Source: a virus
Taxonomy: Duplodnaviria > Heunggongvirae > Uroviricota > Caudoviricetes
Length of the DNA stretch: 3,773 nt
Reading direction: 5' to 3' (one strand)
IMG/VR virus record: IMGVR_UViG_2690316115_000029
The notes beneath the pieces are model-generated. The model had not been told where the DNA came from. It saw only the letters and a program-made list of their open reading frames with translations, and ran no database searches. Position 1 is the stretch's first letter, and every line of letters begins with the position of its first letter. The translations under genes and the position numbers were made by a program. Positions 1 through 3,255 of this stretch are shown piece by piece.

Positions 1-1230
1 ATGAGCAGAGCACTTAACAAACTGAGCGATACACAGCTGAGGAAAATCAACGGCACACCCGCCCAAAAAACAGCCTTTCTTAATGACGGTGGAAACCTGA
101 GCGTCAGGCATTCAACCAGTGGCCTTTTAACCTGGTATTTCACTTACAGGGCCGGAACGGGAAGGGGGGCACCACCGGAACGCATTAAGCTGGGAAATTA
201 TCCTGATCTGAGCCTGAAATCAGCCAGGGAAAAAGCCGCCCAGTGTCGCGCATGGCTGGCAGAGGGGAAAAATCCACGTCATGAGCTTAATTACACCGTA
301 CAGGAAGCGTTAAAGCCGGTAACGGTTGGCGATGCGCTCACCTACTGGCTTGAGTCGTACGCAAAGGAAAACCGCGTGGATTATGCCGCCCTGAAAAAGC
401 GCCTTAATAATCACGTAATACAGCACATTGGTGCTATGCCGCTGGATAAATGCGAGCTACGGCACTGGCTGGCCTGTTTTGACCAGGTGGCAAAGCGAAC
501 GCCTGTTACTGCCGGATTCTTGCTACAGACGTGCAAACAGGCGCTTAAGTTCTGCCGGAGGCGGCGCTATGCAATCAGCAACGTTCTTGATGATATGAGT
601 GTGGCGGACGTTGGGAAAAAACCGGATATAAGCGAGCGTGTCTTAAGCACCAAAGAACTTGGCGAATTATTGCAGGCACTGGACAAAAAAATATTTTCCC
701 CTTACTACGTCGCACTAATCCGCCTCCTGATTGTTTTCGGATGCCGGACGGTAGAACTGAGGTTATCGGAGATCAGCGAGTGGGATTTTACCGAAATGCT
801 CTGGACCGTGCCGAAAGAACACAGCAAAACGAAGGTGGCAATATTCCGGCCCATACCGGAAGCAATACTGCCGTTCGTCACGCAGCTGGTGGAGCAGAAC
901 AGGCACACGGGCTTATTGCTGGGGGAAGTGAAACAGGAAACAAGCGTGTCGCAGTACGGCAGATTAGCGCACAGGAGGCTAAAACACCCTCACTGGTCAC
1001 TGCATGACATCCGGCGCACCTTTACAACGATGCTGAACGATTTAGGCGTGGATCCTCACGTCGTGGAGCAGCTTACAGGTCATCAGATGCCAGGGATGCA
1101 ACGAGTCTATAACCATTCCCGTTATCTGGATGCGAAACGTGACGCGCTGGATATGTGGACGGAGCGGTTAGGGATACTGGCGGGAACACATGAAAATGTA
1201 ACCACATTGCCAATAGCCAGAGAAATATAA
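1..1230 (+). CDS. int: Tyrosine-type site-specific recombinase (integrase, P4-like domain architecture)
   Basis: 409-codon ORF from the track, stop TAA at 1228-1230. N-terminal arm-type region (LSDTQLRK...WYFTYRAG...KLGNYPDLSLKSAREKA...WLAEGKNP) resembles integrase N-terminal DNA-binding domains. C-terminal catalytic motifs are visible: GCRTVELR (box I Arg), HDIRRTF (His-x-x-Arg), LTGHQ, and VYNHSRY (nucleophile Tyr region). The ATG is at window position 1, so the true start and any upstream att site or promoter cannot be judged. Confidence 0.93.
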   Translation: MSRALNKLSDTQLRKINGTPAQKTAFLNDGGNLSVRHSTSGLLTWYFTYRAGTGRGAPPERIKLGNYPDLSLKSAREKAAQCRAWLAEGKNPRHELNYTVQEALKPVTVGDALTYWLESYAKENRVDYAALKKRLNNHVIQHIGAMPLDKCELRHWLACFDQVAKRTPVTAGFLLQTCKQALKFCRRRRYAISNVLDDMSVADVGKKPDISERVLSTKELGELLQALDKKIFSPYYVALIRLLIVFGCRTVELRLSEISEWDFTEMLWTVPKEHSKTKVAIFRPIPEAILPFVTQLVEQNRHTGLLLGEVKQETSVSQYGRLAHRRLKHPHWSLHDIRRTFTTMLNDLGVDPHVVEQLTGHQMPGMQRVYNHSRYLDAKRDALDMWTERLGILAGTHENVTTLPIAREI

Positions 1231-1257
1231 TTTTTTTTGCGATTTTTCAGGATGCGG

Positions 1258-1317
1258 ACAACGTGAAACAACGAGACACAACGACGAACAACAAGGAACA
1301 AAATGGAACAACGGGTT
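1258..1317. repeat. Six tandem 10-bp direct repeats, consensus ACAACGnGnA, in exact 10-bp register
   Basis: Read directly: ACAACGTGAA, ACAACGAGAC, ACAACGACGA, ACAACAAGGA, ACAAAATGGA, ACAACGGGTT starting at 1258, 1268, 1278, 1288, 1298 and 1308. The array begins 28 bp after the int stop. Function is unknown. Confidence 0.8.
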
Positions 1318-1332
1318 AAAAATCAGCCATCG

Positions 1333-1470
1333 TAATAACCATTTGATTTTTATAGGTGTACTGTTTTTTTATACACTGGCGAATCACTCTTAAAAATATG
1401 TAAAAAAGGCGTAAAAGTAAAATTTTATGCCTTTGCATCATAATGAATTAAAAGAGTTTTTATTCTCATT
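1333..1470 (+). promoter_or_regulatory. AT-rich putative promoter region for the alpA-like gene (not mapped)
   Basis: Strongly AT-rich stretch between the repeat array and the alpA leader. It contains TTGATT at 1343-1348, several TATA-like hexamers, and an IHF-consensus-like match (AATCAA-N4-TTA on the minus strand, 1336-1348). No -35/-10 pair with canonical spacing could be fixed by eye. Confidence 0.3.
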
Positions 1471-1513
1471 CCCCCTGCTTCTGTAAAACGACCGCCGCCA
1501 GTGTTTGCCATTC

Positions 1514-1566
1514 CACAAACACCCTGACACAATCCGACACAACCCAACCCAATAATCCACCCAATG
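1514..1566 (+). repeat. CA-rich, G-poor leader with GACACAA direct repeats 10 bp apart, upstream of the alpA RBS
   Basis: GACACAA occurs at 1526-1532 and 1536-1542. CCCAAT occurs at 1548-1553 and 1560-1565. Only 3 G in 1511-1570. Lies directly upstream of the AAGGGGG Shine-Dalgarno of the alpA-like gene. Confidence 0.6.
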
Positions 1567-1595
1567 ACTCTTTAAGAAACAACAAAGGGGGAATT

Positions 1596-1784
1596 GTGTT
1601 AAGCACAGATCGCTTTATACGTGAAAAAGAATGTCAGCAACTTACAGGCCTGAGCCGCTCATGTCGGTACCGCCTGGAAAAAGCCGGACAATTCCCATCA
1701 CGGCGTAAGCTGGGCGGTCGTTCCGTTGGCTGGTCTTTATCCGAAGTTCTGGCATGGAAGGACAGCTGCGAGGCAGTTCACTAA
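1596..1784 (+). CDS. alpA: AlpA-family prophage regulator / excisionase-like helix-turn-helix protein
   Basis: 62-codon ORF with GTG start at 1596, preceded by a strong SD (GGGGG at 1587-1591, 4-nt spacer). Stop TAA at 1782-1784. Sequence carries the AlpA/Vis-type pattern: HTH QQLTGLSRSCRYRLEKAGQFP followed by RRKLGGRSVGWSLSEVLAW. Position immediately downstream of an integrase fits this family. Confidence 0.85.
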   Translation: MLSTDRFIREKECQQLTGLSRSCRYRLEKAGQFPSRRKLGGRSVGWSLSEVLAWKDSCEAVH

Positions 1785-1836: not shown

Positions 1837-3255
1837 ATGAATACTGGATATTCTCCCGAACAAGGGCGGGGCTTCGTTCGTCCTGAAAAACAGAATCTGC
1901 AAAATTTTGCCGAAATTATTCCGGTTATTTCCGGCCTTACTGGCGGGAGTGAAACCAATATTGTTAACGCCAGAGCGTTGCAGATGTTTGATGATAAAAA
2001 GGGAGTAAATTTAACTTACACCCCTGACGGCAATCAGAATATGAGCATTATCTCTGAGTCAGGTTTCTACAAACTAATAAAAACAAAAAGCGCCCCGTTG
2101 CCGGAGCGCCTTTGTGAACAATTAACCAACTGCGCAAAAAATGAATCTGAGCAGTGGGATTATATCAACCATGTGGAGAAGCGCCACAATTGCCGAATAA
2201 CGGGCAAAACAAAGGCCACCCGCTACGGTGGCCCCTCGACACAAGCTACACGTTATCCCCAACGCATGAGCATTGCCAACAATGCCACATTTGCGGCTGG
2301 TGGGCAATGCAATCAGTCTGGTTCAGTTCGTTGCCATACCTGCAATGAGCGCTTTTCCCTGTACTCTTTAAGGAATTGCTCAAGGGCAAAAGCACATGGC
2401 GCGAATCTTTCTGATTCATGCTCTATCTTTCTGCGCCGTCTTTTCCGTGCCGGTGATAATGTTTTGGTCAATTCTTTATCGGTCATTGTGTTGTCCTGCA
2501 TAGCAATGCGCCGTAATACCTTACACCACGGCGCTGATGGTGATTACTCTGGTTCTTTGGTCTTGCGGCGCTGGAGTTCTTCACGTGCGACAGTGACGAG
2601 CTGCCCGATCTCCTCGGCGGCTTTGATTCCGAGTTTTTCCACCTGCGCCAGTGCATCGAGCGAAGAAACCAGGGGATTTTCTCCACTTCCTTCTGCCTGG
2701 CGCCGGGCGATCTCACCGCGTACAGCCGTAACTATAAAATTCGCTTTAGTTTCCCCTGGCTGTAGGGATGCCTCAATGCCACTCACTACTTCATGTGGAA
2801 ATCTGGCATTCAGTTGCTGTGACTTATTGTTAACAGAACTCCTGGACATGTTTGCACCTCCCATTAATAACGGGATGCAGTGTAATACAAAAGTGAATAC
2901 CAAAAAAGACTTGAAATGGTATTCACCTAAATGTAATGTGAATACCACAAGTGCTGATACATGCAATTCAGCAATTGAAACGACGAAGCCCCGCACTGTT
3001 GGAGCAGTAACGGGGCTTCTAACCACCAACGATAACGAGAGTATCGAGGTAGCTATGAGAAATCATACCACACACCCGCAAGGGCGGGACTCGCACAACC
3101 TGAATAAATACATCTGGCGTTTTATCGCCCTGAGCACTGCACAACCGCGCGTGATTACCATTGAGGCCACCAGCGAACAGGAAGCACGCCAGCAATCTCC
3201 GGCTGGCTGCGTGATGGTATTTGCTGCCCGTATTCGTCAGGGGGTAGGCTTATGA
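1837..3255 (+). CDS. Long open frame with Bro-N-like N-terminal domain; only the first ~110 codons look coding (probable truncated gene or remnant)
   Basis: 472-codon ORF from the track, ATG 1837 with no convincing SD. Residues ~50-100 (FDDKKGVNLTYTPDGNQNMSIISESGFYKLIKTKSAPLPERL) resemble the conserved core of Bro-N antirepressor-type domains (D-D-x-K-G ... G-x-Q-x-[ML]-x-[IV]-I-x-E-S-G-[LF]-Y-x-L-I ... S-x-P). From about codon 120 the translation is Ser/Cys/Arg/Ala-rich low complexity. It runs antisense through a minus-strand terminator (2203-2235) and two better-supported minus-strand genes. Confidence 0.3.
   Translation: MNTGYSPEQGRGFVRPEKQNLQNFAEIIPVISGLTGGSETNIVNARALQMFDDKKGVNLTYTPDGNQNMSIISESGFYKLIKTKSAPLPERLCEQLTNCAKNESEQWDYINHVEKRHNCRITGKTKATRYGGPSTQATRYPQRMSIANNATFAAGGQCNQSGSVRCHTCNERFSLYSLRNCSRAKAHGANLSDSCSIFLRRLFRAGDNVLVNSLSVIVLSCIAMRRNTLHHGADGDYSGSLVLRRWSSSRATVTSCPISSAALIPSFSTCASASSEETRGFSPLPSAWRRAISPRTAVTIKFALVSPGCRDASMPLTTSCGNLAFSCCDLLLTELLDMFAPPINNGMQCNTKVNTKKDLKWYSPKCNVNTTSADTCNSAIETTKPRTVGAVTGLLTTNDNESIEVAMRNHTTHPQGRDSHNLNKYIWRFIALSTAQPRVITIEATSEQEARQQSPAGCVMVFAARIRQGVGL
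2203..2235 (-). terminator. Rho-independent terminator for leftward transcription
   Basis: GGCCACC (2214-2220), loop CGCTAC, GGTGGCC (2227-2233). On the minus strand the stem is followed by TTTGTTTTG (plus-strand AAAACAAA at 2206-2213). No T-run follows it on the plus strand. Confidence 0.6.
2313..2501 (-). CDS. Small basic hypothetical protein (57-62 aa), second gene of the leftward cassette
   Basis: Track ORF MQDNTMTDKELTKTLSPARKRRRRKIEHESERFAPCAFALEQFLKEYREKRSLQVWQRTEPD. It starts 42 bp downstream of the Arc-like stop and ends about 80 bp before the minus-strand terminator. The internal ATG at 2486 has an AGGA 7 nt upstream and may be the real start. Against it: weak RBS at 2501 and several rare codons (AGA, CGG, ATA, TTA). 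Confidence 0.3.
   Translation of the reverse strand: MQDNTMTDKELTKTLSPARKRRRRKIEHESERFAPCAFALEQFLKEYREKRSLQVWQRTEPD
2544..2849 (-). CDS. Arc/Mnt-type ribbon-helix-helix DNA-binding protein (putative repressor), 101 aa
   Basis: Start chosen at ATG 2849 (residue 61 of the 161-codon track ORF) because GGGAGGTG lies 5 nt upstream; the track start at 3029 is TTG with no RBS. Product MSRSSVNNKSQQLNARFPHEVVSGIEASLQPGETKANFIVTAVRGEIARRQ... matches the Arc/Mnt N-terminal pattern (beta-strand N-x-R-[FW]-P-x-E-V, then two helices; compare P22 Arc NLRWPREV). Stop TAA at 2544-2546. Confidence 0.7.
   Translation of the reverse strand: MSRSSVNNKSQQLNARFPHEVVSGIEASLQPGETKANFIVTAVRGEIARRQAEGSGENPLVSSLDALAQVEKLGIKAAEEIGQLVTVAREELQRRKTKEPE
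2881..2946. promoter_or_regulatory. Operator-like repeats in the divergent control region: GTGAATACC twice direct, once inverted
   Basis: GTGAATACC at 2893-2901 and 2938-2946; its reverse complement GGTATTCAC at 2918-2926. TGTAAT at 2881-2886 and 2932-2937. The nearest copy is 44 bp upstream of the Arc-like start codon. Promoters for both divergent units must lie in 2850-3054, but no hexamers were confidently assigned. Confidence 0.55.
2985..3019. other. Long imperfect hairpin in the divergent intergenic region
   Basis: GAAGCCCCG (2985-2993) pairs with CGGGGCTTC (3011-3019). Inner ACTG (2995-2998) pairs with CAGT (3005-3008). No clean U-tract on the plus strand; only a weakly T-rich tail on the minus strand. 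Confidence 0.45.
3055..3255 (+). CDS. Small hypothetical protein (66 aa), candidate first gene of the rightward operon
   Basis: ATG 3055 with GAGG 5 nt upstream. Product MRNHTTHPQGRDSHNLNKYIWRFIALSTAQPRVITIEATSEQEARQQSPAGCVMVFAARIRQGVGL. Its TGA stop (3253-3255) overlaps the next ATG (3252) in an ATGA arrangement. It is the 3' end of the 472-codon frame, so it may be an artefact of that open frame. Confidence 0.35.
   Translation: MRNHTTHPQGRDSHNLNKYIWRFIALSTAQPRVITIEATSEQEARQQSPAGCVMVFAARIRQGVGL

Follow-up and report, generated by a model that had tools for sequence, protein, structure and literature searches.

The DNA analysed here, hereafter the window, is a 3,773-nucleotide (nt) stretch of a Caudoviricetes record (IMGVR_UViG_2690316115_000029 of IMG/VR). 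The window is the left end of a phage-inducible chromosomal island (PICI) of the EcCICFT073 type and comprises the integrase gene int, an int–alpA spacer, alpA and the start of a downstream operon. The spacer is 100% identical to several Escherichia coli chromosomes and 99.7% identical to that of CFT073. The counterpart in strain NCTC86 belongs to an 11-kb (11.2-kb) island with roxA on one side and phoQ on the other, and contains int, alpA, a Bro-like pseudogene, an Icd-like gene, a primase gene and capsid and decoration genes. This gene order is that of EcCICFT073 (PMC6092414). The Int protein matches the Pfam families Arm-DNA-bind_3 (5e-18) and Phage_integrase (6e-17). The subject of this report is a CA-rich tract of the spacer at positions 1511–1566 (TTCCACAAACACCCTGACACAATCCGACACAACCCAACCCAATAATCCACCCAATG), which we give an even chance of being the core of the alpA promoter (PalpA) together with its first transcribed bases, overlaid by an operator array for the AlpA protein. 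The coordinates of the features are collected in Table 1.

Table 1. Genes, promoter elements and repeat arrays of the int–alpA region and of related islands. Positions are those of the window unless a locus is named.
Feature	Position	Strand	Sequence, basis or remark
int, P4-type tyrosine integrase with arm-DNA-binding domain	1–1230	+	409-aa open reading frame; NCTC86 annotation integrase
int–alpA spacer	between 1230 and 1596		365 bp; start of downstream operon follows alpA
Upstream ACAAC array, six 10-bp units	1256–1315	+	GGACAACGTG, AAACAACGAG, ACACAACGAC, GAACAACAAG, GAACAAAATG, GAACAACGGG
AT-rich spacer between the arrays	1316–1474		26–32% GC; composition profile
Conserved hairpin in AT-rich spacer	1405–1416 / 1423–1434		arms AAAGGCGTAAAA / TTTTATGCCTTT
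−35 hexamer TTGCCA (predicted)	1505–1510	+	consensus scan; TTTGCCA invariant in 14/14 spacers
Tract array, four 10-bp units	1517–1556	+	AAACACCCTG, ACACAATCCG, ACACAACCCA, ACCCAATAAT
Extended −10 element TGaCACAAT (predicted)	1525–1533	+	17-bp spacer; TG precedes hexamer CACAAT (1528–1533)
5′ untranslated region of alpA (predicted)	1540–1595	+	start placed from the −10 position
Invariant block ACTCTTTAAGAAA	1567–1579	+	identical in 14/14 spacers; between tract and Shine–Dalgarno sequence
Extra in-register unit AAACAAC	1577–1583	+	score 10.4; 60 bp past 1517
Shine–Dalgarno sequence GGGGG	1587–1591	+	sequence
GTG start codon of alpA	1596–1598	+	coding sequence annotated at the same position in all fetched genomes
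alpA, 62-aa excisionase-type winged-helix protein	1596–1784	+	Pfam Phage_AlpA (PF05930), 3e-18
att-arm ACAAY arrays	L001 10665–10757 and 21672–21701	−	phased scan; 3–7 units per array
att-arm regions, ACAAY units and doubled motif	L001 10665–10778 and 21660–21734		NCTC86 island ends
Three-unit array upstream of capsid operon	L026 8287–8320	−	O157:H7 86-24 capsid-forming PICI; GAACAACGTG, GAACAACCAC, GAACAAATAA

The tract consists of 24 C, 22 A, 7 T and 3 G residues and marks the G minimum of the window at the 56-nt scale, with two to three G compared with a mean of 13.7 (standard deviation 3.5). Only 0.6% of the 56-nt segments contain three G or fewer, and the A+C content peaks at 86%. Two copies of GACACAA start at 1526 and 1536, 10 bp apart, and two copies of CCCAAT start at 1548 and 1560. 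Both the G depletion and the two repeat pairs had been noted in the original prediction and were found as described there. On the + strand of the window, GACACAA occurs four times (1275, 1526, 1536 and 2238) against 0.54 expected, and none of 200 shuffles reached four copies. The phased pair ACAAY-N5-ACAAY is likewise found four times against 0.05 expected; all four copies lie on the + strand of the spacer, three within the upstream ACAAC array and one at 1529–1543. Self-similarity at a lag of 10 nt reaches at least 20 of 40 positions in only two regions, the ACAAC array (31/40, the window maximum) and 1495–1577 (maximum 22), over a background of 10.7 (standard deviation 3.7) across the window. 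When the tract was shuffled with its composition preserved, the lag-10 signal had a p value of ∼0.01. The tract is a real, non-random feature. It does not, as had been proposed, end at the alpA Shine–Dalgarno sequence, which lies a further 20 nt downstream behind an invariant 13-nt block (ACTCTTTAAGAAA).

The upstream array retains five to six units in all 14 aligned int–alpA spacers (the window and 13 more, spanning the identity range among 878 E. coli genomes), with the invariant columns on the ACAA cores and variable linkers. In the tract, the unit cores at 1517, 1527, 1537 and 1547 read AAACACC, ACACAAT, ACACAAC and ACCCAAT, and score 5.5, 7.1, 7.9 and 2.2, respectively, in a 7-mer motif model that was trained on 28 distinct units from the upstream arrays only. 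The additional in-register unit at 1577–1583 is not conserved and scores 0.6–3.5 in other haplotypes. The model was used to scan both strands of the 11.2-kb island for five units in 10-bp phase, with 200 Markov shuffles as the null. The upstream array, the training set of the model, ranks first (45.9), followed by a minus-strand array just upstream of int in the P′ arm (25.7), the CA-rich tract (19.6), a minus-strand array near the right end in the P arm (18.7) and a second cluster upstream of int in P′ (17.6). The next best score is 11.8. The null maxima average 10.4 and reach 19.2, so that all 200 lie below the score of the tract. The earlier description of the whole spacer as a set of ACA-based phased repeats is accurate for two phased arrays of one motif, but not for the ∼200 bp of AT-rich DNA that separates them.

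A consensus scan of positions 1100–1900 returned one sigma-70-like site only, TTGCCA-17 bp-CACAAT. The pattern TTGCCA-17-[C/A]ACAAT was called independently in the three other tract haplotypes compared (L003, L005 and L006) and is the sole promoter-like site common to all four. Promoter-like matches are no more frequent per region than in shuffles, and the call is supported by conservation, not by match quality, because a single such match is not above chance in the scan. With the −10 element placed at 1525–1533, the first GACACAA copy would form the extended −10 element and the second would span a predicted transcription start near 1540. The tract array thus extends from the promoter spacer across the −10 element and the predicted start to the 17th predicted transcribed nucleotide. 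In the 10-bp-shorter (O157-type) lineage, the hexamer 17 bp past TTGCCA is AACAAT, that is, the next array unit, and the promoter geometry is kept despite the exact 10-bp loss. The RNA of 1540–1625 is no more structured than shuffles (z = −0.41). An anti-Shine–Dalgarno pairing (UCCACCC/GGGGGA) in the minimum-energy fold was rejected, as the pairing sequence is missing from the other haplotypes and the z score is only −0.41. The tract had been presented as either a transcribed leader or an untranscribed protein-binding array. This choice itself appears to be wrong, since the shared promoter-like site would make 1511–1539 core promoter and ∼1540–1566 the beginning of the 5′ untranslated region. 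Between the two functions, the second protein-binding array is favoured, as the tract carries the same motif as the ACAAC array, is phased in all four haplotypes and has counterparts in the att arms.

The spacer is ∼68% identical between lineages, compared with 88–94% for the flanking int and alpA genes. Because it diverges much faster than these genes, the elements that it retains are informative: the ACAA cores of five to six upstream units, TTTGCCA, the ACTCTTTAAGAAA block, the Shine–Dalgarno sequence and the start codon. The composition of the tract is not among them. Across the four haplotypes, the G content is 5, 9, 11 and 17%, the A+C content is 82, 79, 73 and 63%, and the C content drops from 43% to 26%; the eye-catching composition is thus specific to the lineage of the window. 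The 10-bp register is kept. It is anchored on ACTCTTTAAG, all units open with AC (or AA/GA), and each haplotype has two or more full matches to ACACAAT, ACACAAC or GAACAAT. The tract array is locally significant in all four haplotypes, with p values of 0.0002–0.003 against island-composition nulls and of 0 to 0.023 when the local region itself was shuffled, and different units carry the signal in different haplotypes.

The gene downstream of the tract encodes a protein whose Pfam domain covers residues 5–54. Searches with AlpA retrieved three loci in the genome collection and 19 close homologues at the protein level. The AlphaFold2 model of AlpA has a predicted local distance difference test (pLDDT) value of 87, and its first helix is formed by residues 10–17. 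The best fold match is the GIsul2 excisionase 8c3t (template-modelling scores of 0.83/0.90), followed by RdfS, Pukovnik Xis and TorI, and the top 50 matches contain only excisionases and MerR-type regulators. A literature search on Protein Data Bank entry 8C3T found nothing. Between haplotype lineages, 59–61 of the 62 AlpA residues are identical, and this near-invariance fits a motif that is unchanged across the lineages. Lambda Xis, P2 Cox, BldC and RdfS assemble head-to-tail on repeats of this kind, direct excision by bending DNA at att and regulate their own promoters. At attP as well as at the promoters of their own genes, winged-helix excisionases oligomerise head-to-tail, each subunit taking up one turn of DNA (PMC11963761).

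Published reporter work concerns a fragment that contains the tract. In DH5alpha, pBAD-alpA switches on a PalpA–lacZ fusion (Fillol-Salom et al., PMC6092414), and the published primers place the fused fragment at window positions 1198–1653, which span both arrays. Activation of this fragment requires neither Int nor any other island gene because the DH5alpha host lacks the island. The published pBAD-alpA insert starts at position 1537 and provides functional AlpA in an amount sufficient to induce the island (PMC6092414). Helper phages induce alpA by a factor that was left unidentified in that study (PMC6092414). The most likely, putative, ligand of the ACAAY arrays is AlpA itself. It is the most economical choice because of its excisionase-type fold, the published activation of PalpA without Int and the invariance of AlpA alongside the motif.

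The same motif is found at both ends of the island. Island-free strains align only up to L001 10630, which gives GGGCATATTT as the att core. Because the island-free match stops there, the arrays at the two ends belong to the island and form part of the P and P′ arms of attP. Next to each of them, a 12-bp motif, GGTGTAGTTAAT, is present as a doubled copy, at about −92 and about +140 from the att core. In helper-embedded PICIs (HE-PICI), a doubled motif sits at −81 and +132 (PMC10111431). Because the geometry matches that of HE-PICI and of the P4 arm repeats, the doubled motif is taken as the Int arm-type sites and the ACAAY units as something else. The right-arm array reads AAACAACGTG, GGAACAAATA and GACACAAGAA and thus mixes the AACAAC form with the GACACAA form of the tract.

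The arrangement is shared by islands at different chromosomal positions. The int–alpA module with both arrays occurs at three sites (the L003, L004 and L012 islands; L027–L029), namely between roxA and phoQ, downstream of abgR and inside a truncated Mg-chelatase (yifB-like) gene, and ACAAY units are kept beside Int arm-type sites in islands at all three. The module is common to a classical and a capsid-forming PICI. In the O157:H7 86-24 capsid-forming PICI, an additional array lies just past a terminator and ∼210 bp upstream of the major capsid gene, distant from att; its phased score is 27, and no maximum among 100 shuffles exceeded 23.5. Its distance from att favours a transcription factor over Int as the ligand. 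Replication iterons were rejected as a reading of the tract: those of the experimentally placed origin (ori) downstream of the primase gene pri-rep (L001 16680–16910; ∼12 copies of TGTCTACC in both orientations) are unrelated to ACAAY.

Satellite phage P4 is among the closest known systems. AlpA is 47% identical to P4 Vis over the winged helix (E value 2e-17), the gene comes first in a rightward operon leading to primase in both elements, and Vis is annotated as an excisionase and transcriptional regulator. In the P4 attP arm, AAAACACAACAATG and AAAAACAAATAAT adjoin the annotated doubled 12-bp Int arm repeats in the same layout as in the island. P4 Vis represses its own promoter, PLL. PICI AlpA, in contrast, activates PalpA (PMC6092414). 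The two elements also differ in that a long 10-bp ACAAY array was not found before vis, where three GCTTTAAGTG repeats (9176–9205) and ori iterons are present instead.

The arrays are also comparable to the X1–X1.5–X2 micro-filament of lambda Xis, in which small winged-helix proteins are arranged head-to-tail, approximately one turn apart, beside Int arm-type sites. The lambda filament has three units, compared with four to six in the PICI arrays, and lambda Xis sites are known from attP/attR only, with none in a promoter controlling xis. The excisionase RdfS of ICEMlSymR7A, which ranks second among the structural matches of the AlpA model, oligomerises with one subunit to each DNA turn and occupies both attP and the promoter of its own gene (PMC11963761). 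RdfS sites lack a recognisable consensus (PMC11963761), whereas the PICI arrays repeat a clear ACAAY core, and RdfS oligomerisation needs an extra N-terminal helix that is not predicted in AlpA.

Pseudomonas aeruginosa AlpA, a Q-like antiterminator acting at PalpB, shares with the PICI system its name and an element between −35 and −10. PalpB has a −10-like CACGAT at −1 to +5, shortly behind the true −10 element, and the tract likewise has a second xACAAY hexamer 10 bp past the −10 element. A Q-like loading site, which calls for A at position 2 and T at position 6 of such a hexamer in the initial transcribed region, nevertheless found no support: the candidate tract hexamers are CACAAC (1538–1543) and CCCAAT (1548–1553), the former lacks the essential final T, and CACAAT is present in the O157 lineage only. 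Antitermination of the P. aeruginosa type was likewise not supported, as the 62-aa PICI AlpA with its domain at residues 5–54 has no room for a ring-forming N-terminal segment. A sequence search with PICI AlpA did not retrieve the P. aeruginosa AlpA chains at E ≤ 1.

The arrays are direct repeats of the motif (A/C)ACAAY with one unit per helical turn. The upstream array at 1256–1315 is proposed as the high-affinity AlpA site. Located 230–290 bp upstream and near-consensus, it would be filled by AlpA first. AlpA could then extend cooperatively, or bridge across the AT-rich DNA, to the weaker units at −24 to +17, and occupancy of the tract would set the positive autoregulation of PalpA. High AlpA levels would possibly cap PalpA activity, the units covering the −10 element and the start; alternatively, the tract array may remodel a weak promoter. 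Both the ceiling on autoactivation and the remodelling are suggested by the location of the tract units over the −10 element and the start. What the analysis itself shows is the identity of the motif with its phase, conservation and distribution over the island, the conserved promoter-like geometry and the fold of AlpA, whereas the identity of the bound protein, the place of the transcription start and the sign of the effect of the tract array are inferences.

Several observations weigh against an AlpA operator in PalpA. A site over the −10 element and +1 is odd for an activator, and the strong array is ∼250 bp from the predicted start. The tract units match the motif less well than the upstream units because G-containing flanks are replaced by C. 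The four-unit score of the O157 island (12.7; null 95th percentile, 15.8) and the island-wide phased score of the L005 tract (12.3–12.8) lie within the null range. Int accompanies the motif in every island examined, and comparative data cannot separate Int from AlpA because the arm module and a similar Int N-terminus are co-conserved at the three att sites. An ACAAY array before alpA was not found in four distant PICIs (AlpA 65–70% identical), which carry an accessory gene between int and alpA. The 10-bp periodicity could also be partly a relic of tandem duplication.

The best-surviving alternative, which we nonetheless consider unlikely, places the function of the tract in RNA. The C-rich unstructured tract would be a Rho-loading (rut) region that, together with a BoxA-like block (ACUCUUUAAGA) by the Shine–Dalgarno sequence, silences alpA, either by terminating int read-through or by attenuating PalpA transcripts; in another version, it would be a CA-rich translational enhancer. 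A rut-like composition, with 70–80 nt of C-rich, G-poor and unstructured sequence, is indeed found in the window. The C/G ratio of the 78-nt segment 1508–1585 (30 C and 4 G) is 6.2, by a wide margin the highest of the window (next value, 2.9; 99th percentile, 2.44). On the + strand, terminator prediction returned no intrinsic terminator between int and alpA, and the leader RNA has no excess structure over shuffles. The skew is weaker in the other haplotypes, with C/G ratios of 3.7, 3.6 and 2.8, and the best C>G window of the O157 lineage is displaced 60 nt upstream. The originally proposed CA-rich leader is weakened, since the G depletion and A+C richness vary between haplotypes; a C>G bias persists, so that an RNA-level role such as Rho loading keeps some probability. 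The A/C richness upstream of the ribosome-binding site, on which an enhancer would depend, is not maintained (82% to 63%). Composition in general is not the conserved trait (5% to 17% for G and 43% to 26% for C across the haplotypes), the ACAAY phase persists, and a C>G skew is an automatic by-product of repeating a G-free motif on the + strand. A start near 1540 would also leave just ∼27 nt of the tract transcribed from PalpA, and the pBAD-alpA insert that begins at 1537 gives enough AlpA for island induction.

The BoxA component of the RNA-level alternative rests on positions 1567–1577 (ACTCTTTAAGA), 18 nt before the start codon, which match 10 of 11 positions of the BoxA consensus GYTCTTTAANA (PMC5725501). 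The distance of <50 nt to the start codon resembles that in suhB, one of the BoxA/Nus leaders along with those of rrn and CRISPR arrays. A locus with a 63% identical AlpA (L024; BLASTP) has GTTCTTTTAAA at a similar distance from the start codon. However, position 1 is A in the PICI block and G in the consensus, and the match is not improbable window-wide: the ACTCTTTAAGAAA block is the sole match in the window with at most two mismatches to GCTCTTTAACAA, and 0.41 such matches are expected by chance. AlpA genes are absent from the published list of genes associated with BoxA. As a BoxA, 1567–1577 would thus be a lead only. The same block contains CTTTAAGAA, which we take to be shared with the T7 gene 10 leader enhancer. 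No known RNA family lies in the int–alpA spacer; an Rfam scan of both strands of the whole window at E ≤ 1 gave only two implausible weak matches, both outside the spacer.

It is distinctly unlikely that the arrays are bound by another protein, such as the arm-binding domain of Int, a helper excisionase or a host winged-helix regulator, that gates PalpA in place of AlpA. ACAAY units lie on either side of the att core, in arms that should also contain Int arm-type sites, and at three different att sites the motif is accompanied by Int with its arm module. The doubled 12-bp GGTGTAGTTAAT is the better candidate for the Int arm site, the capsid-operon array is hard to attribute to Int, and AlpA alone activates the PalpA fragment without Int or a helper. 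A helper protein would accord with the induction of alpA by helper phages, and P2 Cox, which activates P4 PLL through phased boxes, provides a precedent, with three 10-bp GCTTTAAGTG repeats upstream of vis in P4. The lambda P arm contains AAACACAACATA, with the ACACAAC of the tract, at lambda 27641 between annotated Int sites; we take this sequence to be the Xis X1 site. The P4 attP arm sequence AAAACACAACAATG contains ACACAAC as well. In lambda, only one site scores, and with seven above-threshold matches in 1.8 kb this may be chance; moreover, AlpA and lambda Xis have no sequence similarity. As a separate observation, AAAACACAACA is present in both the lambda P arm (L025 231–247, lambda 27630–27646) and the P4 attP arm (L030 4124–4151).

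We regard it as highly improbable that the tract has no function beyond the promoter, its periodicity being the decaying relic of a 10-bp tandem duplication or slippage and its composition accidental. Between lineages, the identity of the tract region is 60–84% and does not exceed the average of the spacer, the 10-bp indel shows that slippage occurs there, and units 4 and 5 match poorly in the window. Nevertheless, the motif agrees with the independently defined array and with the att-arm arrays, the array is significant in four of four diverged haplotypes with the signal carried by different units, and, in a spacer otherwise free to diverge, no haplotype has lost the AC-C phase or has fewer than two strong units. 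A coding function on either strand was dismissed, as the 10-bp indel between lineages would frameshift the minus-strand open reading frames of 40–46 aa.

A more far-reaching proposal, to which we assign a very low probability, is that the arrays are a helper-sensing element: an excisionase-type winged-helix protein that the helper makes only during lytic growth would bind the ACAAY units of PalpA and cause a first burst of alpA transcription, after which AlpA autoactivation would take over. Lambda Xis is a candidate inducer, given that the ACACAAC unit of the tract occurs within its X1 site, AAAACACAACATAT. The probability is kept low because the evidence is one motif match that may be due to chance. 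If true, the system would parallel in PICIs the switching on of P4 PLL by P2 Cox and would name the inducer of Gram-negative PICIs, and helper excisionase binding would explain helper-specific, SOS-independent induction. In a variant, the C-rich leader and BoxA-like block may sense the takeover of Nus factors or Rho by the helper.

Other features were noted around the arrays and in more distant islands. The hairpin at 1405–1434 in the AT-rich spacer contains one pair that varies as A-T, G·T or G-C among haplotypes, as read by eye from the alignment. A T run follows on the minus strand, and the hairpin could be a leftward terminator. A GC-rich hairpin without a T tract (TGGCGGC-ACACA-GCCGCCA, 1791–1809) begins 7 nt past the alpA stop codon. 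Lying between alpA and the gene that follows, it may serve there as an attenuator or a stabiliser. Further downstream, a 472-aa open reading frame on the + strand (1837–3255) is overlapped by a 161-aa frame on the − strand (2544–3029). RefSeq annotates this region differently by genome, as a 470-aa Icd-like protein in strain 90-9280 and as a Bro-N pseudogene, a minus-strand YlcI/YnfO gene and a short Icd-like gene in NCTC86, and the pieces of the region that were tested had no Pfam matches. Among the distant PICIs, L018 (2440–2500) and L022 (2380–2477) have a hairpin before alpA that would sequester the Shine–Dalgarno sequence, and the palindrome AGTGATATCACT occurs twice in L022, at a distance of 24 bp. 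These features suggest a different control logic in distant PICIs of the L018/L022 type.

AlpA is the master switch of Gram-negative PICIs. The type of mechanism considered here, a small winged-helix excisionase on one-turn repeats at att and at its own promoter, is well established for P4, P2, lambda and integrative and conjugative elements, and the present analysis is mainly useful as a map of the cis-elements of the PICI switch. The map comprises a conserved predicted core promoter and two phased arrays of a motif that also marks both att arms and, in a capsid-forming PICI, the late operon. Excision and transcription control would thereby be tied to one recognition sequence, and the question of the inducer is narrowed to which protein binds the ACAAY units and whether helper excisionases do so.

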